A stretch of 16,380 nucleotides of DNA from Candidatus Omnitrophota bacterium (GTDB lineage Bacteria > Omnitrophota > Omnitrophia > Omnitrophales > Aquincolibacteriaceae). Position numbers and translations under genes: made by a program. The stretch is taken from NCBI GenBank assembly GCA_043803685.1, contig JAZDJU010000110.1, forward strand, positions 1 through 16,380, in the 5' to 3' direction. This document shows, one piece after another, positions 2,314 to 14,922 of this stretch (position 1 is the stretch's first letter; each line of letters starts with the position of its first letter). The notes below the pieces were generated by a model. It saw only the letters and a list, made by a program, of their open reading frames with translations, had not been told where the DNA came from and made no database searches.

Positions 2314-3480
2314 ATGACTCGTTTCAACGGGGAAAGTTATTCGATGCCGGCGTTTCTCAAAAAACGCTATTCGAAGCTCGACCCGTATGAGGTCGAGCGT
2401 CTGTTTCTTGAAGCCAAAAGCGAGGATCCGACCGTACGCAGAGCGGCAATCGAGCACCTCGCCTTGGCAAACATCGGTTTGGTCATAAGCATCGCCAAGG
2501 GCTATGTCTCCAATGGCTTGCCATTGATGGATCTGGTCCAAGAAGGGATGATACAGCTCATCACCAAGGCGATTCCAACCTTTGATCCTTCACGCGGCAC
2601 GAAGTTTAGCACGTATACGGTGCCTGCGCTGCGGCACACTTTCACTCGCGCGTGCGCTGAAAAGAGCTATAATAGACCCTTTACCATCCCGGAGCATGTC
2701 CGATATGTGAAACATGCCGTTGCAACCGCCCGTGCAGAATTCTATAAGACGCTTGGCCGATGGCCTGATACGGATGAAATATTCGCTCTCTTGCAAACGC
2801 GGGAAAGCAATGTCATCAAAGCAATCTCGAAACAGGAAATCGAGAGGATCGTCCACACGTCTCGTATGGATGTACTCTCATTAACCCAGCCCGCTTTCGA
2901 AGACGACGGTCCTGTTTTGGAAGAGCGGATGCTCATGGACTTCGGGGATCAAGGAGCGGAATGCGTTGCCATCAACTCTGAAGAGCTGGCCTGTTGGTCC
3001 AAACGCCTTCGCACCGTTTTACAGTCCTTACCCGAACGCGAGCGAGAGACCATCGTTTTCCGCTTCGGTCTGGCGGATCAAGTACCGAAAAAGCTTGAAG
3101 CTGTCGGCAAAATCCTGGGTGTGACCAGAGAACGCATTCGCCAACTGGAATGGAAAGCCATAGGGCGGATGGTGAAAAAATGGAGAATACCGAGTGAGTC
3201 CGTCAGGAATATCCTGATCTCTCTGCGAGAATTAGGGTTCACCGTGCAAATTCAAAGCACGAAACCGGTCCCGACGGAAATTCCTTCAACACAAATCTCC
3301 TCCAGAGTTTTGACCGAGCACGCCGTCGCTCTCGCCGACGGCAAATACGTAGTCAGACCTGCACGGACACTCGCCGTTCGACTGAATATCGACGAAAATA
3401 CAGCGCAGATCGCCGTCGAGACGTGCGCCAAAGAAGGCGCGTTCGCGTTCGTAGACGGATGCGACGCCATCCGTCTTTGA
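2314..3480 (+). CDS. Divergent sigma-70 family RNA polymerase sigma factor (RpoD/RpoS-like regions 2-4) with a C-terminal extension
   Basis: Region 2 ANIGLVISIAKGY..GLPLMDLVQEG..FDPSRGTKFSTY; region 3 LGRWPDTDEI; region 4 LPERERETIVFRFGL..LEAVGKILGVTRERIRQLEWKA. GGAGG RBS upstream. Confidence 0.92.
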   Translation: MTRFNGESYSMPAFLKKRYSKLDPYEVERLFLEAKSEDPTVRRAAIEHLALANIGLVISIAKGYVSNGLPLMDLVQEGMIQLITKAIPTFDPSRGTKFSTYTVPALRHTFTRACAEKSYNRPFTIPEHVRYVKHAVATARAEFYKTLGRWPDTDEIFALLQTRESNVIKAISKQEIERIVHTSRMDVLSLTQPAFEDDGPVLEERMLMDFGDQGAECVAINSEELACWSKRLRTVLQSLPERERETIVFRFGLADQVPKKLEAVGKILGVTRERIRQLEWKAIGRMVKKWRIPSESVRNILISLRELGFTVQIQSTKPVPTEIPSTQISSRVLTEHAVALADGKYVVRPARTLAVRLNIDENTAQIAVETCAKEGAFAFVDGCDAIRL

Positions 3481-3791: not shown

Positions 3792-3946
3792 GGGTCATGT
3801 CCGAGTTTCGTCCCGGTTTCCAAAGAAAAGAAAAGAGCTGGAGAGTCTTCCAGCCCGGAAAGTATGCGGCGTGTTTGGCCTGCGACAGCTAGGCCGACCG
3901 CACCACGCGAGTGATGGAACGCTCTTTTGAAAACCGGGTCATGACC
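3792..3946. repeat. Small element bounded by GGGTCATG(T/A)CC palindromic ends, with internal hairpins
   Basis: GGGTCATGTCC at 3792-3802 and GGGTCATGACC at 3936-3946. Internal stems AAAAGAGC/GCTCTTTT, GCTGGA/TCCAGC, TGCGG/CCGCA and GGCCT/AGGCC. Confidence 0.5.
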
Positions 3947-5245
3947 CACGCGTGTCCGGTTAAGAATCCCACAACGTAGCCTGCTTTTGGATGGGTGATC
4001 CGATTTCAGATAAAACGAACTCAGAAATCAGCTCAACCATGGGAGTTTTGTCAAAAAGGGAGACACTTAATATTTGTAGAATTTCGTAGGAACTTCTTTT
4101 GATCCCTAACCTCTTTTTCATAATGGCAACCAGTAAATATGTACACAGCGCAATGCATATTTGTGTCTTCACTGAATTTCGTGAGCGACCCCAAAATGAT
4201 TTGACGCTCAAATGCTGTTTGATCCATCTAAAAAATAGCTCAACTTGCCAACGATGTTTGTATACATCAGCGATTGTTTGTGCAGGTACGTCAAATTGAT
4301 TCGTGAGAAATACATACACATGTTGTGTTTCAGCATCAACATATTTGATGCGCCGAAGCTTCTCGGGATATCGCTCTTCTGCAGTGTACCCAGATAAATA
4401 AATCACCTGATCACATTTCACCCCAGAAGACTTGTCTACATCATTTGAATAAATTCGTCGAAAGACGGTATTACGTCTTGCTCGTGTCACGAAAAACGCT
4501 TGTGCACGATGGATCGTATTCAGTCTCTTAAAATCTCCATACCCACGATCCATGACATAGTAGCTTCCGGCTTCATAGATAATCCGATCAAGAAAGTGCA
4601 TATCATTCTCTTTTGCGCTGGAAAAATCGAAAAATGCAGGAATATTGCCTTTTAAATCCAATCCCATATTGAGTTTGATTGCCGCCTGTTTCTTCGAATA
4701 TCTTGCCCATGGAAATATATTCAAACACATTTCAATCGTCGTTGAATCAACGACAAGAACTGTTCCCTCCAAATCAAGGGTGAATGGCGTATCATCAACA
4801 TAGATGCCGCGCGCCTCTTGAATGAGGATGAGTGCGTAGTCGCGATAGATACGCCAATCTCGTGCTTCATTCGCATCGGAGAGCGTGGATCGTCTAACAA
4901 CAGTACGAAAACCCAAATGATACAATTTTTCATGTTGAGCGGTGAGACATATGACAATGTCACGCAGGCTCTCACGGAATGAGAGATGACCGAATGACAT
5001 CGCCAGAAACTGTTCCCAGCAAGAAAATTCTCTCACCCGATATTCACCGCCATACCGTGCAACGCAATGATTAAATTGATATCGAACGACACTGTCCATG
5101 ACCTGTGAAAAGACATATTGGCCTTGGTGCATATACACCAAGTATTGCACAGATAAAATTCAAATCGAAAAATGCTTTTTTTCAAAAAAACGGCTCAACG
5201 AAGAGCTGTTTTTATGATGGTGAAAGACTTAACCGGACACGCGTG
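3947..5245 (-). mobile_element. IS4-family insertion sequence
   Basis: Perfect 18-bp terminal inverted repeats CACGCGTGTCCGGTTAAG (3947-3964, 5228-5245). Flanking 10-mers GGTCATGACC and GGACATGACC match at 9/10. The transposase stop codon lies within the TIR. Confidence 0.92.
3960..5132 (-). CDS. IS4-family DDE transposase (DUF4372-like N-terminus plus DDE_Tnp_1-like domain)
   Basis: VVDSTTI and VMDRGY acidic motifs and the YREK signature YKHRWQVELFFRWIKQ. N-terminus MHQGQYVFSQ...FSCWEQFLAMSFGHLSFRESLRDI. ATG at 5132 preferred over the start at 5150. Confidence 0.95.
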   Translation of the reverse strand: MHQGQYVFSQVMDSVVRYQFNHCVARYGGEYRVREFSCWEQFLAMSFGHLSFRESLRDIVICLTAQHEKLYHLGFRTVVRRSTLSDANEARDWRIYRDYALILIQEARGIYVDDTPFTLDLEGTVLVVDSTTIEMCLNIFPWARYSKKQAAIKLNMGLDLKGNIPAFFDFSSAKENDMHFLDRIIYEAGSYYVMDRGYGDFKRLNTIHRAQAFFVTRARRNTVFRRIYSNDVDKSSGVKCDQVIYLSGYTAEERYPEKLRRIKYVDAETQHVYVFLTNQFDVPAQTIADVYKHRWQVELFFRWIKQHLSVKSFWGRSRNSVKTQICIALCTYLLVAIMKKRLGIKRSSYEILQILSVSLFDKTPMVELISEFVLSEIGSPIQKQATLWDS

Positions 5246-5274
5246 GGACATGACCCCGTTTCTTGGTCGCAGTT

Positions 5275-5355
5275 TAGTGCACAGATTCCGCACATGCCGA
5301 GGCATGTGGGTTGCACGATACTAAATTGTCATGGCGGAGATGGAGGGATTCGAAC
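5275..5355 (-). repeat. att-like repeat copy 1: tRNA-Ser 3' fragment plus conserved trailer
   Basis: Ungapped 81-bp match to 14775-14855. TGGCGGAGATGGAGGGATTCGAAC differs at one position from the tRNA-Ser(GCT) 3' end, and similarity stops just past the T-loop. Confidence 0.9.
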
Positions 5356-5631
5356 TAAGTGGGTCATCCGATACTAAGTTCTCTTGCCTCAATGTTGAAA
5401 TTGATCTCAACCGAGCTATTTTTTTGTTGTGTTGTTTAGAGTTGAGATTTTTCGTGTTATCTCCACGGGCAGCATATCCGGCCAAATCTCATGCAATCTC
5501 ATATGAGCTATCATTAAACGGGTTCAGTAATCGGTGAATGCCTGCCCAAGAAAATCGCTCGATAATTACATGTCGCAAGAAAATTTAACGAACTCGTTAC
5601 GATAAAAGTTGGAAACTAAGTAAGAGAAAAA

Positions 5632-7008
5632 TTAAGAACGTATTATCAATGTATTCTCTGCGACCTTGAGTCGATCCTGTAGCGTTTGGCGCGATTTGAG
5701 GTAGGCATAGACGGCATTGATATCAGGAAATGTTTGTTTACCGACAAGCAACCAGCTCATCGCTTTGAAGAAAGTATCTTTTTTTAATCTAAGCACCTCA
5801 CATGAAGGAAAAACGTCTGGATAAGACTCCATTTCTCGAAAAATGCACGGAAGAGCATCCCGAACATCTTCATCAGGCTTTTCAAAATTTGGAAAGAGGA
5901 TAGATCGAATCATTCTTACCGCTTCTTCCGGTTCTCTCCGTAGTGATATTAAGAGCTTCTGTAATGCTTCATCAGACTCCAGTGATTGAACGAGTGCGTC
6001 TTCGTGATTTTTTGCCAAATACAACTCGACGGAAGCAAGGTAAATGTCGGGCGTGATCGTCTTGATCAGTTTTTTGTTCAGAGACGCTAATTTTTCAGGA
6101 TCAAATTTTCCATTTGCTCTATGGATTTTATTCGCGTCGAACGTTTCAAGGAATTGTGAAATGGAAGGATAGACGACGTTGGAGCGTCCATAGCCGGACG
6201 AGATGAGATAAGAGACGAGCGCTTGAGGAAGAATTCCTTTTCGAATGAAATCATCAAAGTTAGAAGCTCCTCCCAACATTTTGCCGCGTTCATCTAGTAG
6301 AAGTGGCGTATGGAGGTACTTTTTAGGTTCGAACCCAAGGGCGATGCGAACCATCTCTTGAAAATCGACGATGGGCATTTTGTCTTGTCCTCGCACGACG
6401 TGCGTCACTCCGAATTCGGCATCATCAACAACGGTCGCGAGATGATAAAGCACGCTTCGGTCGGAGCGCATCAAAGGAAAATATTTTTGGCCACTTTTGA
6501 GACGTTTTTCAAGGTCGACGAGAATTCTACCTCTCAAAACATCGTCGAATTCAAACGTATCAGAATATTCGTCGATAAATCGCTCAATATCAAATAAAAC
6601 GAGTCCGGAATCTTTGTCTACGAAAGCGATTTTTTTATCGAACAGCTCTTCTATGTATTTTGAATAAATCGTCTGTCTTTCAGATTGGTAAACGGATTGC
6701 CCTATGGTTTCTTGGGAATTTTCAGGCGTAACATCAAATTCGAAACCAAGAACATCGCTAAAAAAATGGAGGAGCTCCAATGCTTTCTCTTTCTTATGCT
6801 CTTCAGCATTGGTGTCATCTACGCGAAAAATAACCTTCCCTTCAGATCCTTTTTGTTTTTCGCTCTGAGCGAGTGAATAATTATAGAGATGAGAACGGAT
6901 CGCTCCGATGTTTTTATTTCCTTCGACGGGGGACATTCCGAGGCGAACTACGACAGGTTTCTTCTTAGAATCGTTTTGCTGTTTTCTTTCTATGGGCTTT
7001 TCGTTCAT
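5632..7008 (-). CDS. Glutamyl-tRNA synthetase-like protein (class I aaRS paralog, degenerate HIGH/KMSKS)
   Basis: VRLGMSPVEGNKNIGAIR (cf. RFAPSPTGxLHxGxxR), FRVDDTN (cf. LRIEDTD), YQSER, YHLATVVDDAEFGVTHVVRGQD, HTPLLLDERGKMLGG, GILPQALVSYL, FDPEKLASLN. ATGA overlap with the upstream gene. Confidence 0.85.
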   Translation of the reverse strand: MNEKPIERKQQNDSKKKPVVVRLGMSPVEGNKNIGAIRSHLYNYSLAQSEKQKGSEGKVIFRVDDTNAEEHKKEKALELLHFFSDVLGFEFDVTPENSQETIGQSVYQSERQTIYSKYIEELFDKKIAFVDKDSGLVLFDIERFIDEYSDTFEFDDVLRGRILVDLEKRLKSGQKYFPLMRSDRSVLYHLATVVDDAEFGVTHVVRGQDKMPIVDFQEMVRIALGFEPKKYLHTPLLLDERGKMLGGASNFDDFIRKGILPQALVSYLISSGYGRSNVVYPSISQFLETFDANKIHRANGKFDPEKLASLNKKLIKTITPDIYLASVELYLAKNHEDALVQSLESDEALQKLLISLRREPEEAVRMIRSILFPNFEKPDEDVRDALPCIFREMESYPDVFPSCEVLRLKKDTFFKAMSWLLVGKQTFPDINAVYAYLKSRQTLQDRLKVAENTLIIRS

Positions 7009-7796
7009 AGAGGATCACTTGGATTTTTTTTAAGAATGATCAGCGTATTTTCATCGTGCCACGAAATGCGATCCACGTCGTGAAAGCGTTTTTGAAGCCT
7101 GTCAATAAATGTTATGAGGGATCGTTTGAATTCCGTCTCCGTATATAAATTGAACGTTGAATAGTGTTTCCCCTGCGCCTGCTCTTTCAATCTATTGATG
7201 TTTTCGACGCGTGGGAAGCGAAAGTATTCGATATGCTCAACGAGTAGCCCCGGTGCTTTTTTCATGGTGGACTGGAATAAGCTAAGCGTGAACAGGCGTG
7301 TCTCTTTTTTTTGGAACAAGGGGAAATATTTCCCCCAGATATTTCTAGAATTCTGATTTTTAAAGCGCGTGTATATAAATATTCGACCGTGATTTCTCAA
7401 ACAGCGTGAGCATTCGTCCAGGAATTGAGGCAGCTGAAAATGATGGATAGCATTAAAAATGAACAGGGCATCGATAGAATTCGACTCGAAGGGCAAGTGT
7501 TCCGCGGATGCTTGTATTATTTTAAAGTTTTTAAAACCGCCCTTTTTTAAATTTTTGCTCAGCAGGGAGAGCATGGCTTTATTTTTATCGACGCTATAAA
7601 AGAAAGAATATCCTTGTATACTTTGGAGCAACCTTGCTGTATATCTCCCGTCGCCGCAGCCGATTTCGGCTATAATTGACACGGGACGCGTTTTTAACCA
7701 CGATTCGATGAATGCGATCGGAGCGTTATCCGTTGTGCGCAGATGAGTGTAACGATTCGCAATTCGTGAAAAGTGGCGTTGGACGTCTTTGATCAT
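7005..7796 (-). CDS. Class I SAM-dependent methyltransferase
   Basis: Motif I IAEIGCGDG, SVDKNKAML, ASAEHLPFESNSIDA, AIHHF, RCLRNHGRIFI. Confidence 0.92.
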   Translation of the reverse strand: MIKDVQRHFSRIANRYTHLRTTDNAPIAFIESWLKTRPVSIIAEIGCGDGRYTARLLQSIQGYSFFYSVDKNKAMLSLLSKNLKKGGFKNFKIIQASAEHLPFESNSIDALFIFNAIHHFQLPQFLDECSRCLRNHGRIFIYTRFKNQNSRNIWGKYFPLFQKKETRLFTLSLFQSTMKKAPGLLVEHIEYFRFPRVENINRLKEQAQGKHYSTFNLYTETEFKRSLITFIDRLQKRFHDVDRISWHDENTLIILKKNPSDPL

Positions 7797-7804
7797 ACAG
7801 TCTG

Positions 7805-8461
7805 TTAGATGCGCCCCACTGTTCCGTCTGGCTGGAACTCAGAAATTTTTCCGACGCACCGCTCTATGTGATTACCGATCCAAATAACGCCGGAATTTTC
7901 AGGAATTGCCAGAATCGGACTACGTAATGAAGCGGCGAGAGATGCCGCATGTTCTTTCATCGAATCCTGGTAATGGCAGAGCACGGACATTCCTCCAAGC
8001 ATATTCAACCCGTTGTGGTGCGTGCTGCCTCGATGGTTTTCGTCTTCGACGGTGCGTATATCTTTCCCGAGCACTATCGCTCCCGCACTTCCGCCGTATA
8101 TACTTCCGCCTCCCTGCACATACTCCGCGAGACGCTCTCTCATTCCCGCTTCAGTTACATAATCCAAGAGATGGTATGTATTTCCGCCCCCGATATATAC
8201 GGCATCAAATTTGTCGAGTGATGTTACCCGTATATTCTCCAGAGCTGTTTCAAAATCGATTTCTTTTCCTTCCGAATGTCTCGCGACCAGGGCGGAGAAC
8301 CAATCGATACAAGCTTCGTATCCTATCGACTCACGGCGCAAAGCGATGGGAATATATAGAAGACTTGCCTGACGGGGAAGTTCGAAAAAAAATTGCTCAT
8401 CGAAATCGAAGCTTGTATCCGCGTCGCCTCCCCCTCCGAGGAAGAGTTTTCCATTCTTCAT
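7805..8461 (-). CDS. Peptidase E-like protein (peptidase S51, class I glutamine amidotransferase-like fold)
   Basis: LFLGGGG, YIPIA, DAVYIGGGNT, nucleophile YGGSAGA, LCHY and AIPE motifs; the catalytic Ser, His and Glu positions appear intact. Confidence 0.9.
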   Translation of the reverse strand: MKNGKLFLGGGGDADTSFDFDEQFFFELPRQASLLYIPIALRRESIGYEACIDWFSALVARHSEGKEIDFETALENIRVTSLDKFDAVYIGGGNTYHLLDYVTEAGMRERLAEYVQGGGSIYGGSAGAIVLGKDIRTVEDENHRGSTHHNGLNMLGGMSVLCHYQDSMKEHAASLAASLRSPILAIPENSGVIWIGNHIERCVGKISEFQPDGTVGRI

Positions 8462-9633
8462 AGAAAATTTTGAAGAGTTCTTTGAATAATGTCCGCCTGA
8501 TCGGGTCTTGAGCGTTCAAGTTGCAGAATGAACGCGGACCTGTTTTGGTTTACGTTCAAATAGATGTCAGGCCCACCGAGTTTCTTGAATTCACCCAGAA
8601 AAGCGACATTGTGAGCTCTCTCAATTTCTTTACGCACGATTTCCAGCAAGGATGCCTTATCTAACGTCGATTCGGCGCTCCATCTTGTCCAGTAATCGTC
8701 TGCTATGGAAACAAGTTTTTCGATGTCGAGCCTCATTGATCTGCTCCGTGAAAAAAATCTTGTCATGCATTGGCGTAATCGATATCCGGGATCTTTGTGC
8801 GAGGGGACGACCCCTTCGCGTGCCATCAATACGCCCGTCCTGACTGCATCAATGACGCCTGAGATATCGTTTCGGTCATGATCAGGGGTGTAAAATTGAT
8901 CAAAATCTTGATAATAGTGGCAATGTTTTCCAGTACCCCAACTGAAACGCTCCATACCAAAACAGCCGTCCGCGATGGCGATTTTGGACCCGTCATCCAA
9001 CGGATAGTCCGGCACGTAGACGCATTCCGAGACTTCGACTTCTCGGGCATAGAGTGTGATTGTATTTTTTGTAACTTTTTTCTTTCCCCATCGGTCAGCA
9101 GATTCGCTGATTGTCACTCGGATGTCTCGTAAAGGAACGCCTTGATTAATGAGGAGAGCTAAGAGCAGTTTGTATATTTTGAAGAAATCTTCCATTTTGG
9201 CGTTCACGTGCTCAATCGAAACGTCGACGAACGAGGTTGAGAATCCTTCTTTTACGGCATCCATATATTGACTGCGAATAACAGGTTGCGCGACGAGGAA
9301 TTTTTTCCCCACGATCTCCGCACGCTCCCGTAACATGCTTTCGACGCGCTGTACACCAGCCGTCGTAAAAACGGTCGATTCTCCAGGCGGCCTAAGCACC
9401 GGCTCTGGCTTCAGTCGCTCATATCCTTCGAAAAATCGTTCAACGTCTTCGGATTCGTTCAAATTTAAAACTTGTTCGGATTTATTTTTTATTTCATCGT
9501 CAATTACAGTCTCGTCAATTCGGTAGCGTTGTCTCAAGCTATCTTCCGTTTCGAGGATAAGATGAAACTGGTCGATAAAATCATCAATCTTTGATCGGAT
9601 CTTTTCATCGCCTCCTGACGTGTAGCGTTCCAT
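8458..9633 (-). CDS. Alanyl-tRNA synthetase-related protein (catalytic and helical domains only)
   Basis: STVFTTAGVQ (cf. LLFTNAGM), AQPVIR (cf. QxCxR, motif 2), DGCFGMER (cf. DTGMGLER, motif 3), IDAVRT..EGVVPSHKDPGYRLR (cf. ADHxR..DGVxPSNxGRGYVLR). At 391 aa it has no editing or C-Ala domain. Confidence 0.85.
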   Translation of the reverse strand: MERYTSGGDEKIRSKIDDFIDQFHLILETEDSLRQRYRIDETVIDDEIKNKSEQVLNLNESEDVERFFEGYERLKPEPVLRPPGESTVFTTAGVQRVESMLRERAEIVGKKFLVAQPVIRSQYMDAVKEGFSTSFVDVSIEHVNAKMEDFFKIYKLLLALLINQGVPLRDIRVTISESADRWGKKKVTKNTITLYAREVEVSECVYVPDYPLDDGSKIAIADGCFGMERFSWGTGKHCHYYQDFDQFYTPDHDRNDISGVIDAVRTGVLMAREGVVPSHKDPGYRLRQCMTRFFSRSRSMRLDIEKLVSIADDYWTRWSAESTLDKASLLEIVRKEIERAHNVAFLGEFKKLGGPDIYLNVNQNRSAFILQLERSRPDQADIIQRTLQNFL

Positions 9634-9638
9634 CGTCG

Positions 9639-10859
9639 TTAGCAGAGTTGAACGACCCCGCTGATAATTTTTTTCGAAAGCGCTGGTATCTGTTGAACCT
9701 CATTCTGTAGAAAGGTCTTGAGAGATTCGCTTTCGGTGAATTCTTTTGGGATATTGATTGCCAGGATCCATGGATCGACCAGCGGCTTATCGCTCTGGCT
9801 GACGAGATACACTTCGTTCTGAATACCGAATTTTTCATGAACGCGCCTTGCCAATTCGAAGGCGGCCACGTAATAGATTTTTCCGATATGGTATATGGGA
9901 TTCTTTCCGCAGGATCCTTCCATGCTCATAGGCCGCGTTGGTGTAATGAGTCCGTTGATTCGATTTCCTCTCCCGACCAATCCCTCGTCACCACTTTCGA
10001 TTGACGAACCGGTTGCGGTGAGATAGAAATCACCCCTTTGTTCATCATCTCTTGTATTAATGCTTAATTCGAAATCAGCTATTCCGAATCGATACATAAT
10101 GTCTTCAACGTAAGCTTTTGCAGCTTTGATATTTTTTGCATATTCGGAATAATTTTGTACATATGTCGCGATTTGAGGAATGCACATGGTAAAAAAGAAC
10201 TTATTTTTATTCCGGCATGCCATGATTTTAATGTCGCTACCCAACCAAGGGTCTGCTATTTTTCGCTCAGGAGAATTTAAGAATTGTTCGATCGCGAGCG
10301 TCGCCTGCTCCAGTATCGTCATGGGTGCGTAACCGACTCCGAGTGATGTATCATTGGCAGTTAATTGTTTTACTTCGGGCAAATCATCGACAGTTTCCGG
10401 CTCAAACCATTTTTGGCGAGCCCCACCAACCGCTTCTTTTTCATAGGTCTTCCCCGGGCTACTTTGAACACTTAAGTTGAAATGAAATTCCAAATTTGTA
10501 TCTGGGTCAACAAAGGGAAGCTTCTCGATAAAAAACTCCTTTGTCCAAGAAGTAAGAAGTTCTTTGATGGGGATGGTTTCTTGGGCGAACTTCGTCGATG
10601 CTCGGCCGTTTATTAAAACGCGGATTGGATTCAGTACGCGCCCTTCTCCGAATTTGACGCGCGAAGAACCCCCAAGAAGCCCTAATTTGTCAAAATTATG
10701 GTGCAAGACCACACCGAATTTTTTCATGCAGTAATTTGAGAAGTTTGCAGAAAATTTCTCAGCGAGGGCATCTGCTAGCGTATCTGGATGGCCAGTTCCT
10801 TTTCTTTCGATGATTTCAAAATCCTGATTAAAATCTTTGCGTGAGAGGAGTGTATGCAT
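9639..10859 (-). CDS. mat: S-adenosylmethionine synthetase, archaeal type
   Basis: EIIERKGTGHPDTLADALAE, HHNFDK, ANDTSLGVGYAP, GSDIKIM, YLTATGSSIESGDEGLVGRGNRINGLITPTRPMSMEGSCGKNPIYHIGKIY. ATG at 10859 chosen because the TTG at 10895 is the -35 box. Confidence 0.95.
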   Translation of the reverse strand: MHTLLSRKDFNQDFEIIERKGTGHPDTLADALAEKFSANFSNYCMKKFGVVLHHNFDKLGLLGGSSRVKFGEGRVLNPIRVLINGRASTKFAQETIPIKELLTSWTKEFFIEKLPFVDPDTNLEFHFNLSVQSSPGKTYEKEAVGGARQKWFEPETVDDLPEVKQLTANDTSLGVGYAPMTILEQATLAIEQFLNSPERKIADPWLGSDIKIMACRNKNKFFFTMCIPQIATYVQNYSEYAKNIKAAKAYVEDIMYRFGIADFELSINTRDDEQRGDFYLTATGSSIESGDEGLVGRGNRINGLITPTRPMSMEGSCGKNPIYHIGKIYYVAAFELARRVHEKFGIQNEVYLVSQSDKPLVDPWILAINIPKEFTESESLKTFLQNEVQQIPALSKKIISGVVQLC

Positions 10860-10866
10860 GCGCGTT

Positions 10867-10895
10867 ATTGTATTTGACGATGATGAAAAATGCAA
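10867..10895 (-). promoter_or_regulatory. Putative sigma70 promoter giving a leaderless operon transcript
   Basis: TTGCAT (10895-10890), 17 bp, TACAAT (10872-10867), then 7 nt to ATG 10859. No Shine-Dalgarno sequence. Confidence 0.65.
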
Positions 10896-11042: not shown

Positions 11043-11123
11043 TACCGCACAAACCTCGAACGCCTTTGGACATGTGGGTTGCACGATACTAAATTGTCAT
11101 GGCGGGGAAAGTGGGACTCGAAC
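11043..11123 (-). repeat. att-like repeat copy 2: diverged tRNA 3' fragment plus conserved trailer
   Basis: Ungapped match to copies 1 and 3. 35 bp are identical to copy 1 (CATGTGGGTTGCACGATACTAAATTGTCATGGCGG). The tRNA part GGCGGGGAAAGTGGGACTCGAACC has 5 mismatches to tRNA-Ser(GCT). Confidence 0.88.
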
Positions 11124-11191
11124 CACGCGGGTCGCCTCTCGTGCATATATTGGGGTTTTTGAAGGAAAATTTCAATTTTTCACTTCTCGTC

Positions 11192-11236: not shown

Positions 11237-12301
11237 ATGAGATTAAGCATCTACCACCGTGATCCACGAATCAAATATATCCCCCAAAATCTCTGGTCTC
11301 TCATCAATCACATTGATGAACTGAAGGGTCGTTGGATTGGAGGCGCGTCTCTCAATCCGCAAGCATTAAAGCGATTGAAGCGTTCCGTGCTGATCACATC
11401 TACAGGAGCGTCGACGCGCGTCGAAGGAGCAAGACTTTCGGATGAGGATGTTGAGAAACTCATGCGCGGCCTTTCTGTTAAAAAATTCGCTGATCGTGAC
11501 CAGCAGGAAGTGAAAGGATATTATGAATTGTTGGATAACATTTTTTATGGATGGAAACAAACTCCTTTCAACGAAAGCGCGATCAAGCATCTCCACAAAG
11601 AATTGTTGAAATACGTTTCCAAGGATGAGCGTCATCGTGGCGAATACAAGAAGACGGAAAATTCTGTCGAGATGTACGACGAATCAGGAAAATCTATAGG
11701 CGTCGTCTTCGAGACGACTCCTGCATATCTCGTGCCAAAACAGATGCAAGAGCTTGTCGCATGGACAGAGGGAGCGCTCGCGCAAAAAGAATTCCATCCG
11801 TTGCTCGTCATCGGAAATTTTCTTGTGGAGTTTCTTGCCATTCATCCGTTCCAAGATGGAAATGGGCGTCTTTCGCGCATCCTTGCAAATCTCCTCATGT
11901 TGAAGGCTGGATATGAATATGTACCGTACGTCTCACATGAAAAATTGATTGAAGACAACAAAGCCAATTATTATCTAAAGCTCCGAAAAAGTCAGAAGAA
12001 GCTGAACACCAATTGTGAAGATATCACGGATTGGCTTGAGTTTTTTCTGACGGTTTCGCTTGAGCAAGCTAAACAGGCAATCGAGCTTTTATCTAAGGAG
12101 AACATTGAAAGGCTGTTGTCTCCAAAGCAGCTCCTCGTGTGGCAATACCTTCTATCCATTCCCGAAGCGACTCCTGGCGACATCACAAAGGCAACAGGGG
12201 TAGCACGACCAACGGTTTCACAGGCGTTGGATGTTTTGATGCGCCTGAAAAAAGTTGAACGCATCGGACAGGGACGAACGACGAGATATCGGAAAAAATG
12301 A
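11237..12301 (+). CDS. Fic family protein with C-terminal winged HTH
   Basis: Canonical Fic motif HPFQDGNGRLSR. N-terminal inhibitory (S/T)xxxE(G/N) motif STRVEG. C-terminal TPGDITKATGVARPTVSQALDVL..VERIGQGRTTRY wHTH. Confidence 0.95.
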   Translation: MRLSIYHRDPRIKYIPQNLWSLINHIDELKGRWIGGASLNPQALKRLKRSVLITSTGASTRVEGARLSDEDVEKLMRGLSVKKFADRDQQEVKGYYELLDNIFYGWKQTPFNESAIKHLHKELLKYVSKDERHRGEYKKTENSVEMYDESGKSIGVVFETTPAYLVPKQMQELVAWTEGALAQKEFHPLLVIGNFLVEFLAIHPFQDGNGRLSRILANLLMLKAGYEYVPYVSHEKLIEDNKANYYLKLRKSQKKLNTNCEDITDWLEFFLTVSLEQAKQAIELLSKENIERLLSPKQLLVWQYLLSIPEATPGDITKATGVARPTVSQALDVLMRLKKVERIGQGRTTRYRKK

Positions 12302-12310
12302 TCAGCGCAT

Positions 12311-12568
12311 ATGGGCAAACCCATTAAGGCGATTCATGCTCTGAATTGGTATTACGGCAATATCTGTTCTCGTAAGTGTCCGGAAAATCGACAAAAGGAA
12401 CATTACGACCGGATGCGTGAAATCATTCGTGGTCATGAAGAGTATCTCATTACGCATAAGATGTTCGTCAAAGTCATGCACGAAAGACATCACGTTTGCA
12501 GGCTCACGGATGAGGAGCTGCGAAAGCCAACCCGTGACTTCTGGAAGTTAGACCGCATGTCCCTATGA
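12311..12568 (+). CDS. Hypothetical protein (85 aa)
   Basis: Fills the gap between fic (9 nt after its stop) and the helicase gene (ATGA overlap). No recognised family. Confidence 0.6.
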   Translation: MGKPIKAIHALNWYYGNICSRKCPENRQKEHYDRMREIIRGHEEYLITHKMFVKVMHERHHVCRLTDEELRKPTRDFWKLDRMSL

Positions 12569-14724
12569 TTTCCGTTACTGAAGAACAGCTTGTTTTATTT
12601 TCCTCTTTATTCCATGGTCGAGAGGATATTTTTGCACGTCGCTGGGAGAAGAACGGGAAAATTGGCTACGCTCCAGCGTATGATGTTGATTGGACGGCGT
12701 TCAACGAACATAAACGACATGGCGGGACATGGCTTAACTTCAAGGAAAAGGTTCCGATCCCACTGACTCCCGACGTCATCAAAAAGCATTTTCTCGGAGG
12801 CCAAACGATCGGCATCTATCCATCACTTGAAGACAATACGTCGTGGTTTATCGCTGCGGATTTCGACGGAGAGCGATGGTGGAATGATTGCCAACAGTTC
12901 ATCCACGTCTGTTCGGAGTATGACATTCCGGTCTCCATCGAACGCTCACGCTCCGGTAATGGCTGCCACATCTGGCTTTTTTTTGAAGTGCCGTATCCCG
13001 CATTCAAGAGCCGTCGTATTTTTCTTGAACTTATCCGTCAGGCGTTTCATCTTTCGGAATTCGATAAAGAAGTGAGTTTCGACCGTCTATTCCCAAATCA
13101 AGACGAGCTGAGCGGCAAGAGCTTCGGCAATCTGATTGCATTGCCGTTTCAAGGAAGGCTAACAGATCAAGGAAAAACAGTTTTTATCCATCCTGAAACT
13201 GGAGATCCGTATCCAAACCAGTGGCAGCATCTCCTTGGAATAAAACGTCTGGCGACAATCGAGCTTGATACTTTATACGATCGGCTCGTCCAAGCTGGCA
13301 CTGTCGTTTCGATGAACGGCACAGCGTCAGAGGCACCAGGAGGCATTACGATCACGCTCGCGTCTTCGATCGAATTGTCACGCCGTGAGCTGGATACTGA
13401 GACGGTCAAATTTCTGAAAGAGGAATTGAATTTCATGAATGCCGAATATCTGCAAAAAAAGCGCTTCGGCAAAAGCACCTACCAAACGGAAAAATATTTC
13501 AAGCTGATTGAAGAGCAGGGCGACATCCTGAGACTGCCGCGAGGCTTCCTGGAATCTCTAAAACAGCACTTTGACCAACGCGGGATGCGCTATCATCTAT
13601 CGGATAGACGGACAGCCGTGGAACCGGTTCAGTTCAATAGCGCGATCGAGCTTCGCACTGAACAGAAAGGCTTGGTCGAGAAAGCGCTCCTTCATGATGA
13701 AGGGACGATCGTTGCGCCGCCCGGAAGCGGGAAAACGATCGTTGCCCTTGAGCTTATCGCGCGACGCGAACTCCCTGCTTTCATTTTAGTTCATCGTCGG
13801 CAACTCATGAGTCAATGGATCGAACGCATTCAAGCGTTCCTACAAATCCCAAAGACAAAAATTGGAAGAATCGACGGCGTAAAGAAAAAGTTCGGCAAAG
13901 AGATTACGGTTGCCATGCTTCAGAGTTTCGCGGGTATGGAAAATCACAAAGACGAAATGGCAAAGATCGGAACTGTCGTTATGGATGAGTGCCATCATGT
14001 CCCGGCCAAGACATTCCGGGAAGTAGTTAAAAATCTAGATGTGAGATACCTGTATGGCCTGACAGCAACACCAACCCGCAAACATCACGATGAAAAAATG
14101 ATCTTTCTATATGTTGGAAATATCATCGCGGAACTAGCGGTAAATCCAGCGATCAATGAAGATTCAACTTCGATGCAGACCCCAGTAAACGTCGTCATCC
14201 GAAAAACAGACCTGGACATTCCATTTAGATTCAAAACCGACAACTATCAGCTTCTTGCCAAAATGTTGAGCTGTGACCATTCACGTAATAAGGTTATTGT
14301 TGGTGATATCCTCGTTCAGGCCAAGCAGAGCCGTAAAATCTTGGTATTGAGCGAACGCAAGGAACACTTGGAAATACTCAATCTCTATCTCCGCAAGGAA
14401 GCAGAGACGATCACGATTACTGGCGACGATTCTGAGTCGAACCGGAAGCAAAAATTGAAACAGATTGAAACCGGCCATTACCAAGTCATTCTTTCAACCG
14501 GCCAGTTCTTCGGTGAGGGCTTGGACATCAAAGGGATCGATTGCCTCGTGATCGCGTTTCCATTTTCCTTTGATGGAAAGCTAGCGCAATACGTAGGACG
14601 TCTGCGTGGTGTAGACAAACTCGTTCTGGACTATCGCGATTATCTCACGCCATTTTTGGATCGGCAGTTCAAACAACGAATGAGGTTTTACAAGAAACAA
14701 GGATATGAGATTAAAGAAACCTAA
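12565..14724 (+). CDS. AEP primase-like (TOTE-type) domain fused to an SF2 DEAD/DEAH-box helicase (ResIII-like)
   Basis: N-terminal FHGREDIFARRW, AADFD, ERSRSGNGCHIW, FDRLFPNQD, GNLIALP. Helicase motifs APPGSGKT, DECHH, GLTATP, GEGLD, QYVGRLRG. Confidence 0.88.
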   Translation: MISVTEEQLVLFSSLFHGREDIFARRWEKNGKIGYAPAYDVDWTAFNEHKRHGGTWLNFKEKVPIPLTPDVIKKHFLGGQTIGIYPSLEDNTSWFIAADFDGERWWNDCQQFIHVCSEYDIPVSIERSRSGNGCHIWLFFEVPYPAFKSRRIFLELIRQAFHLSEFDKEVSFDRLFPNQDELSGKSFGNLIALPFQGRLTDQGKTVFIHPETGDPYPNQWQHLLGIKRLATIELDTLYDRLVQAGTVVSMNGTASEAPGGITITLASSIELSRRELDTETVKFLKEELNFMNAEYLQKKRFGKSTYQTEKYFKLIEEQGDILRLPRGFLESLKQHFDQRGMRYHLSDRRTAVEPVQFNSAIELRTEQKGLVEKALLHDEGTIVAPPGSGKTIVALELIARRELPAFILVHRRQLMSQWIERIQAFLQIPKTKIGRIDGVKKKFGKEITVAMLQSFAGMENHKDEMAKIGTVVMDECHHVPAKTFREVVKNLDVRYLYGLTATPTRKHHDEKMIFLYVGNIIAELAVNPAINEDSTSMQTPVNVVIRKTDLDIPFRFKTDNYQLLAKMLSCDHSRNKVIVGDILVQAKQSRKILVLSERKEHLEILNLYLRKEAETITITGDDSESNRKQKLKQIETGHYQVILSTGQFFGEGLDIKGIDCLVIAFPFSFDGKLAQYVGRLRGVDKLVLDYRDYLTPFLDRQFKQRMRFYKKQGYEIKET

Positions 14725-14774: not shown

Positions 14775-14855
14775 TACCGCACAAATCTCGCACGCTTTGA
14801 GGCATGTGGGTCTGCCGATACGAAATTGTCATGGCGGAGAGGGAGGGATTCGAAC
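14775..14855 (-). repeat. att-like repeat copy 3 (overlaps the 3' end of the intact tRNA-Ser(GCT))
   Basis: TACCGCACAAATCTCGCACGCTTTGAGGCATGTGGG...AAATTGTCATGGCGGAGAGGGAGGGATTCGAAC aligns without gaps to copies 1 and 2. Confidence 0.9.
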
Positions 14856-14922
14856 CCTCGCGGGCTTTTACACCCCTAGGAGATTAGCAATCTCCCCCCT
14901 TCAGCCTCTTGGGTACCTCTCC
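14832..14922 (-). tRNA. tRNA-Ser(GCT)
   Basis: GGAGAGG/CCTCTCC acceptor stem, anticodon arm GGAGA-TT-GCT-AA-TCTCC, long variable arm, GGTTCGAATCC, G discriminator and CCA. Confidence 0.97.

Follow-up and report, generated by a model that had tools for sequence, protein, structure and literature searches.

What does a bacterium do with a methionine adenosyltransferase (MAT), copies of alanyl- and glutamyl-tRNA synthetase (AlaRS and GluRS) that are additional to its housekeeping ones, a serine hydrolase and a methyltransferase, all packed into a single operon? The question is raised by a DNA stretch of 16,380 nucleotides (hereafter the window), namely positions 1 to 16,380 of contig JAZDJU010000110.1 in GenBank assembly GCA_043803685.1, filed under Candidatus Omnitrophota bacterium. 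Our analysis points to a genomic island that would make an aminoacylated, 5'-substituted adenosine, predicted to mimic aminoacyl-adenosine monophosphate (aminoacyl-AMP), by means of the MAT-fold enzyme, two tRNA-dependent synthetase relics and the S51 hydrolase; by analogy with known systems we give this reading a probability of about 0.48. The DNA is likely to come from an ultra-small bacterium of the Patescibacteria, and the island likely yields an as yet undescribed adenosine compound bearing an amino acid and takes no part in protein synthesis.

The five open reading frames (ORFs) lie on the minus strand and are intact. Their junctions, read directly from the sequence, consist of gaps of 5 nt (9634-9638) and 8 nt (7797-7804) and of two ATGA overlaps (8458-8461 and 7005-7008), so that the gene arrangement given by a first-pass annotation of this DNA is borne out. 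The same is true of its family assignments, which Pfam, profile-profile and fold comparisons reproduced, and conserved active-site residues are present in all five proteins. The features of the operon are:

9639..10859, minus strand: MAT-fold enzyme of the archaeal class and of the cassette subfamily, likely 406 aa from the ATG at 10859 (PF01941, E 3e-107)
8458..9633, minus strand: truncated AlaRS paralog of 391 aa (hhalign 99.6%, Foldseek), with an architecture like that of AcmF, introduced below
7805..8461, minus strand: peptidase S51, a serine hydrolase of the PepE/cyanophycinase fold (PF03575, E 1e-20; PepE matches in the PDB)
7005..7796, minus strand: class I methyltransferase dependent on S-adenosylmethionine (SAM), of a widespread uncharacterised family (PF08241, E 5e-20)
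5632..7008, minus strand: full-length GluRS paralog of 458 aa (PF00749, E 1e-24)
10867..10895, minus strand: candidate promoter TTGCAT-17-TACAAT, read by eye, ending 7 nt before the ATG at 10859

The longest MAT frame spans 9639-10895 and begins at a TTG (10895), while homologues begin at the ATG at 10859, which is most likely the start. A single promoter had been claimed for the operon; the consensus scan, however, returned none upstream of MAT on the minus strand (11 sites against 8.9 ± 3.6 by chance), and what is left is the element TTGCAT-17 nt-TACAAT, a weak and uncontrolled candidate for a leaderless MAT start. A TANNNT element stood 4-9 nt upstream in 7 of 10 other MAT starts examined, a count made with no shuffle control. 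In one metatranscriptome, contigs covered four listed stretches within the operon and also its neighbours, although contigs cannot show transcription.

The AlaRS paralog has no Pfam match and reaches 18.5 bits against the TIGR00344 cut-off of 457. Profile-profile comparison nevertheless aligned it to canonical AlaRS (hhalign probability 99.6, E 5e-24), the top Foldseek matches of its structural model (predicted local distance difference test score, pLDDT, 86.8) were all AlaRS, and the template modelling (TM) score to 3wqy was 0.65. The fold comprises the aminoacylation domain and part of the tRNA-recognition domain, without an editing or C-terminal domain. Class II motifs 1-3 could be aligned to canonical AlaRS, which places Arg120, Phe135, Trp182, Glu200, Asp222 and Arg229; of the residues that contact the adenine and the amino group, Arg120, Phe135 and Arg229 occur in 53 of 53 alignment rows and Asp222 in 49 of 53. 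The Asn of the canonical G3:U70 reader is replaced by His279, and the YDTYG-type Asp motif is found in none of 147 listed relatives. Under a putative mapping to AcmF numbers, the position at which AcmF changes Asn to Gln is Glu203 in the window and Glu or Asp in 41 of 53 rows. The residue equivalent to G237 is Cys in the window, in the related locus L010 and in the single GlyRS-linked locus, and Gly in four SerRS-linked loci; this pattern weakly favours glycine as the substrate. The family numbers at least 205 clusters at E<=1e-30 in a profile search. Most of the 147 newly listed relatives (133) measure 300-450 aa; five are longer, and four of these are fusions, to a glycosyltransferase (P0203, P0216), a methyltransferase (P0219) or an S51 domain (P0229). 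The ESM Atlas matched the AlaRS paralog with unnamed clusters only.

The GluRS paralog belongs to a sharply bounded family, with 50 homologues at or above 256 bits followed by a fall to 86 or less. It had been regarded as a free-standing catalytic paralog that activates amino acids. It is in fact full length (model pLDDT 91.2; TM 0.77 to the whole GluRS 8jpv), and it fails the test for GluQ-RS (TIGR03838, 81.9 bits against 276.7; TM 0.43-0.49 to YadB) as well as the GluRS equivalog (TIGR00464, 168 bits against 290). The HIGH and KMSKS motifs serve ATP binding and adenylation, and the equivalents of Arg22, Tyr188 and Arg206 line the glutamate pocket of GluRS. In the window HIGH reads NIGA and KMSKS reads KMLGG (GKMLGGA), whereas the housekeeping GluRS of bin G806, described below, has HIGN and SKLSKR. 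Among 26 aligned rows of the family the first His of HIGH is kept in none; Arg22 is kept in 24, Tyr188 in 25 and Arg206 in 26. With both motifs lost, the GluRS paralog probably cannot activate glutamate with ATP, and the activation step proposed for the class I paralog is improbable.

The MAT-fold enzyme falls below all NCBIfam equivalog cut-offs and matches archaeal MATs of the PDB at E 6e-73. It retains the motifs ERKGxGHPD, NDTS, DIK, GRGNR and GKNP, together with Asn67, and the catalytic, adenine (Tyr273) and methionine-carboxyl (His58) residues of MjMAT are conserved. Its gating loop is 16 residues longer than that of archaeal MAT, so long that the equivalents of Asp146 and Leu147 could not be placed by sequence, and Ile351 of archaeal MAT is Ser368. 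Both the loop and the Ile351 position are remodelled throughout the AlaRS-linked clade, 15 rows in the MAT tree with support of 100/99, to which the window copy belongs. The loop motif is common to most cassette MATs; it is absent from the plain MATs L072, L074, L143 and L144 and from the cassette MAT of L130. The first-pass claim that the unit supplies SAM is thus not supported as it was worded, since the gating loop is remodelled, the methyl pocket appears to be so too, and most related loci have no methyltransferase, though bin G806 lacks a recognised MetK.

The S51 hydrolase carries the Ser125-His163-Glu188 triad (PF03575, 74.8 bits against 23.9) and is not PepE proper, scoring 43.8 bits against 156 for the NCBIfam PepE dipeptidase equivalog. 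It is of the AlaRS-linked type, with 47-55% identity to the closest AlaRS-linked S51 proteins and 21-26% to the GluRS-linked ones. The methyltransferase has 1271 homologues at E<=1e-20; its counterpart in L010 is 52% identical, barely over the family background of 42-50%, and the ESM Atlas returned only generic methyltransferases. Clusters of methyltransferase and GluRS-paralog members have three contig sizes in common (6841, 4886 and 2991), which hints, circumstantially, at more linked copies.

Neither synthetase paralog is the housekeeping copy. The assembly to which the window is assigned (G000; 2.9 Mb with 6.6% contamination; tRNA-Ser for TGA and for GCT in two copies each) contains alaS, metK and gltX. 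The window contig (G000:C110) is, however, 99.9% identical over 14.8 kb to L034 on contig C19 of G806, a 0.9-Mb bin labelled Patescibacteria; it is the second-largest tetranucleotide outlier among the 54 contigs of G000, and direct composition comparison favours G806 marginally (0.83 against 0.80). The identity and the outlier rank led us to drop G000 as host: the contig was probably mis-binned there and is probably native to G806, so that the metK of G000 and tallies for the G000 phylum probably concern another organism. In G806 a housekeeping AlaRS (642 aa) and GluRS are present and MetK was not found (the bin may be incomplete), nor was it found in G403 and G405. Intact alaS and gltX in both G000 and G806 rule against a housekeeping role for the paralogs, as anticipated; that metK too would lie elsewhere holds for G000 and, by our search, not for G806. 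Within the class of G806, and counting G806 itself, the GluRS paralog occurs in 1 of 381 genomes and the AlaRS paralog in 2 of 381.

The genes keep recurrent company in other genomes. A profile of the AlaRS paralog retrieved 25 metagenome loci, of which L033 (626 aa, with an editing domain) was dropped; the remaining 24 include six identical or near-identical pairs and so represent about 18 distinct loci. MAT is the immediate upstream neighbour in 21 of the 24 (the remaining three begin where the contig does), and S51 the immediate downstream neighbour in 18, with three cut by contig ends and three without it. A glycosyltransferase is present in 16 loci, a PIG-L deacetylase in nine and an inositol-phosphate synthase in seven, while a methyltransferase of the window's family is absent from 22 of the 24, all but the L009/L010 pair described below (an unrelated FkbM enzyme occurs in one). 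The GluRS paralog has a set of its own: in eight loci besides the window's twin, S51 was found in seven, MAT in five and a SAM-hydroxide adenosyltransferase instead of MAT in one, two loci being cut upstream. The AlaRS paralog of the window's type occurs in none of these eight cassettes, and the MAT and S51 types that usually accompany the GluRS paralog are both missing from the window. The five-gene order recurs in one independent locus, L009/L010, a single sequence assembled twice, at 52-70% identity and with the tight junctions kept. These results show that two modules have been joined, MAT with truncated AlaRS and S51 on the one hand and the GluRS-paralog module on the other, and that the window is an AlaRS-type core carrying a methyltransferase and a GluRS relic where sister cassettes have sugar enzymes. 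The co-occurrence expected for the five families therefore holds for the paralogs with MAT and S51; the full set, seen in one other independent locus, is not the conserved unit.

Several sister cassettes also carry an intact synthetase: GluRS in L036 and L038 (both additional to the housekeeping copy), SerRS in L030, L130, L137 and L141 (a second copy in two of three genomes checked), GlyRS in L013 and ProRS in L127. Around MAT matches in bins of the candidate phyla radiation (CPR) type and related ones we viewed 20 regions, 19 with MAT, and 17 of the 19 lay in cassette-like neighbourhoods: five with the AlaRS paralog, five (overlapping) with a further, intact synthetase (ProRS, SerRS or GlyRS), and ten with enzymes of the kinase-like, glycosyltransferase and cyclitol types. 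PF01941 itself was found in 21 of 401 genomes of another CPR phylum, about 1 in 20.

Variants of these cassettes were noted in passing. Seven loci (L133, L134, L135, L136, L138, L139 and L145), in small-genome bins and one G000 relative, carry thuringiensin-like sets made up of MAT-fold, HPr-kinase-like, F420-ligase-like, shikimate dehydrogenase, TIM-barrel, Gfo/Idh/MocA and GT2 genes. L041 (15284-19948) holds a second cassette type with YqcI/YcgG, an S66 peptidase (MccF family), a 377-aa truncated AlaRS of another type, a methyltransferase and two dCTP-deaminase-like genes. L127 (3137-8644) reads Ino1 - MAT - S51 - full-length ProRS and faces a glycosyltransferase, with no synthetase relic; by analogy with SbzA, its intact ProRS may be a transferase. 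L036 (4877-11383) combines one intact and one motif-less GluRS, with the SAM-hydroxide adenosyltransferase in the place of MAT.

Taking into consideration that (i) the paralogs are not housekeeping copies, (ii) they co-occur with the same partners and (iii) fusions join AlaRS paralogs to S51, to glycosyltransferases and to methyltransferases, the reading that fits best is a pathway of the aminoacyl-nucleoside type. The pathway first proposed for the operon keeps these three supports; not supported as worded are the five genes as a conserved unit, ATP activation by the class I paralog and the supply of SAM. A model for the reaction comes from AcmF of the ascamycin pathway (Streptomyces sp. 80H647), described as a truncated AlaRS that takes an amino acid off charged tRNA and hands it to a small molecule occupying the AMP site (PMC12945691). 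The AcmF and SbzA clusters have a hydrolase and a resistant intact synthetase alongside (PMC12945691), and the extra intact synthetases of the sister cassettes follow this AcmD/AcmF/AcmE and SbzA pattern.

In the pathway that we propose, the MAT-fold enzyme would transfer 5'-deoxyadenosyl from ATP to a nucleophile. In the sister cassettes this is probably a unit of inositol or of an amino sugar; in the window the acceptor could still be methionine. The AlaRS and GluRS relics would run the second half-reaction of a synthetase backwards on tRNAs charged by the housekeeping enzymes, the AlaRS relic drawing a small amino acid, slightly more probably Gly than Ala or Ser, and the GluRS relic glutamate. 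In a transfer like those of AcmF and SbzA, the amino acids would end up on an amine of the adenosyl adduct, which would sit in the former AMP site; the methyltransferase would tailor the product, and the S51 hydrolase would remove an aminoacyl group, either for self-protection or for pro-drug switching. Transfer of this type would account for a GluRS relic that has lost its ATP motifs yet keeps its tRNA and glutamate sites, for S51 as a constant partner, for the intact synthetases of sister cassettes, and for the constant proximity of an enzyme, of either fold, that acts on adenosyl C5'.

Several observations weigh against this pathway. The five-gene set has a single independent second copy, and there the MAT gene is frameshifted at about 7000-7010 (seven T then AAAG, the same in two assemblies), which may reflect a pseudogene, phase variation or a programmed slip. 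The window MAT keeps the methionine-carboxyl His (His65, equivalent to MjMAT His58), Tyr291 and Asp303; it may still make SAM from ATP and methionine, and the retained His and the MetK-less G806 fit plain SAM synthesis. In the MAT tree the cassette enzymes do not form one clade, two plain MATs nesting inside with weak support, and the thuringiensin-type MATs stand apart; the MAT of the thuringiensin cluster retains the Ile that the window MAT has changed. The AlaRS paralog lacks the diagnostic D-to-E change of AcmF and has invariant arginines in motifs 2 and 3, so it may still adenylate. The sugar and inositol genes of the sister cassettes are absent from the window, and the partners tested are absent elsewhere in G000 save for an Ino1 in a lipid-type context, G806 not having been searched. 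Neither an exporter nor an intact immunity synthetase was found in the operon island.

In its most specific form the proposed pathway is a minimal assembly line of two synthetases in a parasite-sized bacterium: a MAT fold would adenosylate a nucleophile other than methionine, and the class I and class II relics would both serve as ligases dependent on tRNA. The product would be a methylated pro-drug, glutamyl-glycyl (or glutamyl-alanyl) adenosine, to be unmasked or disarmed by S51. Such a scheme would include the first GluRS-derived transferase, and the MAT-fold chemistry would explain the unassigned C5'-O link of thuringiensin and adenomycin; as a whole we consider it unlikely. A plainer account, in line with the first-pass proposal and in our view quite unlikely, makes the MAT an ordinary SAM synthetase feeding the methyltransferase and the paralogs ATP-dependent amino-acid ligases that produce a small methylated peptide or acylated metabolite. 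It would suit the catalytic motifs of MAT with His65, Asn67, Tyr291 and Asp303, the absence of a recognised MetK from G806, G403 and G405, the methyltransferase in the operon, the fusion of a methyltransferase to an AlaRS paralog in P0219, and the invariant motif 2 and 3 arginines; yet it leaves a GluRS paralog without HIGH and KMSKS, a window-family methyltransferase absent from 22 of 24 AlaRS-paralog loci, and a gating loop and Ile351 position remodelled across the AlaRS-linked clade. Alternatively, the operon could be a loose composite, in which a MAT-AlaRS-S51 trio has lost its former sugar genes and picked up a passenger methyltransferase and GluRS relic, with no single pathway and a window copy that may be decaying. 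This is distinctly improbable in view of the gene order and close spacing shared with L010 at 52-70% identity, the five intact window frames with conserved active-site residues and, circumstantially, the contig sizes 6841, 4886 and 2991 shared by the methyltransferase and GluRS-paralog clusters, even if the usual MAT and S51 types of the GluRS paralog are missing, none of the eight other GluRS-paralog cassettes has this AlaRS paralog, the methyltransferase comes from a large unrelated family and the L010 MAT is frameshifted.

Resistance or detoxification would require no compound made de novo; incoming mimics of aminoacyl-adenylates would be captured or acylated by the relics and then cut by S51 in the manner of the hydrolase MccF. 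This appears very unlikely: a biosynthetic MAT-fold enzyme, an inositol synthase, glycosyltransferases and a deacetylase travel with the core, although adenine and amino-acid pockets kept beside eroded catalysis, S51 as the most constant partner and extra intact synthetases in sister loci would all be expected of it. A role in tRNA or protein modification, or in anti-phage defence to match the Fic and TOTE genes next door, draws on the tRNA-binding domains retained in the paralogs and on the SoFic-like and AEP-TOTE helicase proteins of the adjoining island. We regard it as highly improbable, because PADLOC matched none of four genes and gave a generic methyltransferase match for the fifth, partners in other loci are small-molecule enzymes, and the searches used gave no relatives of MAT or the AlaRS paralog in viral contigs or phages.

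Patescibacteria are generally considered to have almost no specialised metabolism, yet one CPR phylum has MAT-fold cassettes in about 1 of every 20 genomes, almost all in small-molecule-type neighbourhoods. If the aminoacyl-adenosine pathway is correct, these cassettes would represent a large and unexploited class of nucleosides that target synthetases, a new MAT-fold reaction relevant to known C5'-ether nucleosides, and more than 200 AcmF-like enzymes that have no Pfam model, besides a class I relic able to transfer glutamate although its ATP motifs are gone. The window is the most compact version of the cassette, with relics of both classes and no sugar genes.

The setting of the operon is marked by three repeats and a tRNA gene:

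5275..5356, minus strand: att-like copy of the tRNA-Ser 3' end and downstream segment (repeat family D2; blastn E 5e-17), the distal island boundary
11043..11124, minus strand: att-like copy of the tRNA-Ser 3' end (repeat family D2; blastn), the boundary between the operon island and the Fic-TOTE island
14832..14922, minus strand: tRNA-Ser(GCT) (ARAGORN), anchor of the tandem islands, whose 3' end is the third repeat copy, 14775-14856 (D2)

The flanking repeats consist of the tRNA-Ser(GCT) 3' end plus about 57 nt, are 74-87% alike and have E values of about 1e-16 to 1e-17 against the genome. They split the region into two tandem islands, one with Fic/AEP-TOTE (11237-14724) and one with the five-gene operon; as described at first pass, nothing else of note, and no Rfam match, lies between the operon's two repeats. 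Direct repeats of a tRNA 3' end, a GC content of 0.44 against 0.52 for flanking host genes, and a patchy distribution together identify the operon, as judged from sequence, as a tRNA-anchored genomic island. Neither ORF calls nor Pfam showed an integrase gene between the repeats, and no repeat-to-repeat excision joint appeared in contigs of four runs, which drop rare variants. Repeats of the same family border another MAT cassette at tRNA-Ser in L135 (87.5% over 64 nt), and in L130 a MAT cassette and a serine recombinase lie between two tRNA-Ser genes. Near-identical DNA spanning the operon and both boundaries is present in contigs of three other groundwater studies; the arrangement is therefore not an assembly artefact. 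On the plus strand all three repeats (5275-5356, 11043-11124 and 14775-14856) read a similar short peptide, HVG..I.NCHGG..G.RT, as if it were the remnant of a gene-embedded recombination site. A tie to a serine recombinase was considered and rejected, for the four recombinases inspected lack an end of this type.

A viral or phage origin was likewise set aside, no relatives of MAT or the AlaRS paralog having been found there; the 13 viral GluRS matches are 24-30% identical. MAT relatives occur on plasmids in 44 records, from Bacillus, Parageobacillus, Streptomyces, Megaera and a haloarchaeon, and the 13 records viewed show similar small-molecule neighbours in all but two, which are plain. The AlaRS-paralog representative, the GluRS paralog and the methyltransferase gave no plasmid match at the thresholds used.

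The neighbouring island (11237-14724) encodes a SoFic-like Fic protein with a helix-turn-helix domain, an 85-aa unknown and an AEP-TOTE primase fused to an SF2 helicase, a defence-like cargo. An IS4-type transposase (DUF4372 and DDE; 3931-5261) with 34-nt inverted repeats is inserted 13 nt outside the distal att-like repeat. The ORF at 2314-3480 encodes an RpoD-like sigma factor that is unusual in being extended at its C terminus by about 100 residues, and that at 544-1620 a Cys-rich repeat, lipoprotein-like product without a Pfam match, which at 63-69% GC is unlike the remaining contig and which we take to resemble myxobacterial surface proteins.

How does the operon compare with systems already described? 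Synthetase paralogs with non-translational roles include GluQ-RS (YadB) and MshC. GluQ-RS is short and has working ATP motifs, whereas the window GluRS paralog is full length without them. The mycothiol pathway comprises Ino1, the GT4 enzyme MshA, the deacetylase MshB, the CysRS-derived MshC and MshD. Its logic of Ino1, GT4 and PIG-L is seen in sister cassettes and not in the window, which has no mycothiol enzymes; MshC derives from CysRS, while the cassette ligase is AlaRS-derived even in sister loci. Adenomycin contains serine. PADLOC 2.0 matched the gene set to no defence model, its one match being to a generic methyltransferase. In the open literature we found no paper on the five-gene set or on either module, and none describing a GluRS-derived transferase, though subscription papers (for example on adenomycin biosynthesis) may exist.

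The window MAT shares with archaeal MAT (MjMAT 7P83, PfMAT 6S81) the fold family, the triphosphate and adenine residues and the equivalents of His58 and Tyr273, as far as the available part of the source describes them; it differs in the 16-residue-longer loop, in Ser368 for Ile351, in scoring below the equivalogs and in belonging to mobile bacterial cassettes (PMC9298006). In thuringiensin and adenomycin, according to the portions available, a sugar or inositol is attached to adenosine C5' (PMC4147579, PMC6540904). The pCT127 region whose gene types match the thuringiensin cluster holds a PF01941-like gene with the same extended WFxP..DLPE loop as the window MAT. No MAT is assigned in the part of the review available, where the C5' bond is attributed to another protein (PMC4147579). 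The thuringiensin MAT type differs in forming a separate clade, at about 34% identity, and its sugar genes have no counterpart in the window. In adenomycin the C5' is ether-linked to an inositol bearing an amino sugar, as described in the part available, and the inositol synthase, glycosyltransferase and deacetylase of sister cassettes fit these parts, a likeness to the structure of the compound only (PMC6540904).

The closest parallels are AcmF and SbzA, here compared by their descriptions in the available part of PMC12945691. Like AcmF, the window AlaRS paralog is a two-domain truncated AlaRS without the Asp-plus-Asn reader of G3:U70, and, as in ascamycin, a synthetase copy is paired with a hydrolase, with an extra intact synthetase in sister cassettes. 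AcmF, however, has changed D to E and N to Q, whereas the window keeps Asp222 and has Glu at the Asn position; the window's hydrolase is S51 and not alpha/beta, sulfamate genes are absent, and a MAT-fold enzyme and a class I relic are added (PMC12945691). SbzA of the SB-203207 pathway, an IleRS-like class I copy that passes Ile from its tRNA to a small molecule bound where AMP would lie, is the counterpart of the GluRS relic, but it keeps HYGH and AMSKA motifs and weak charging where the window GluRS paralog has lost both motifs (PMC12945691). By analogy, the operon would work like the tailoring sets of ascamycin and SB-203207, yet it fails the residue-level tests drawn from them and adds a MAT-fold enzyme and a motif-less GluRS.

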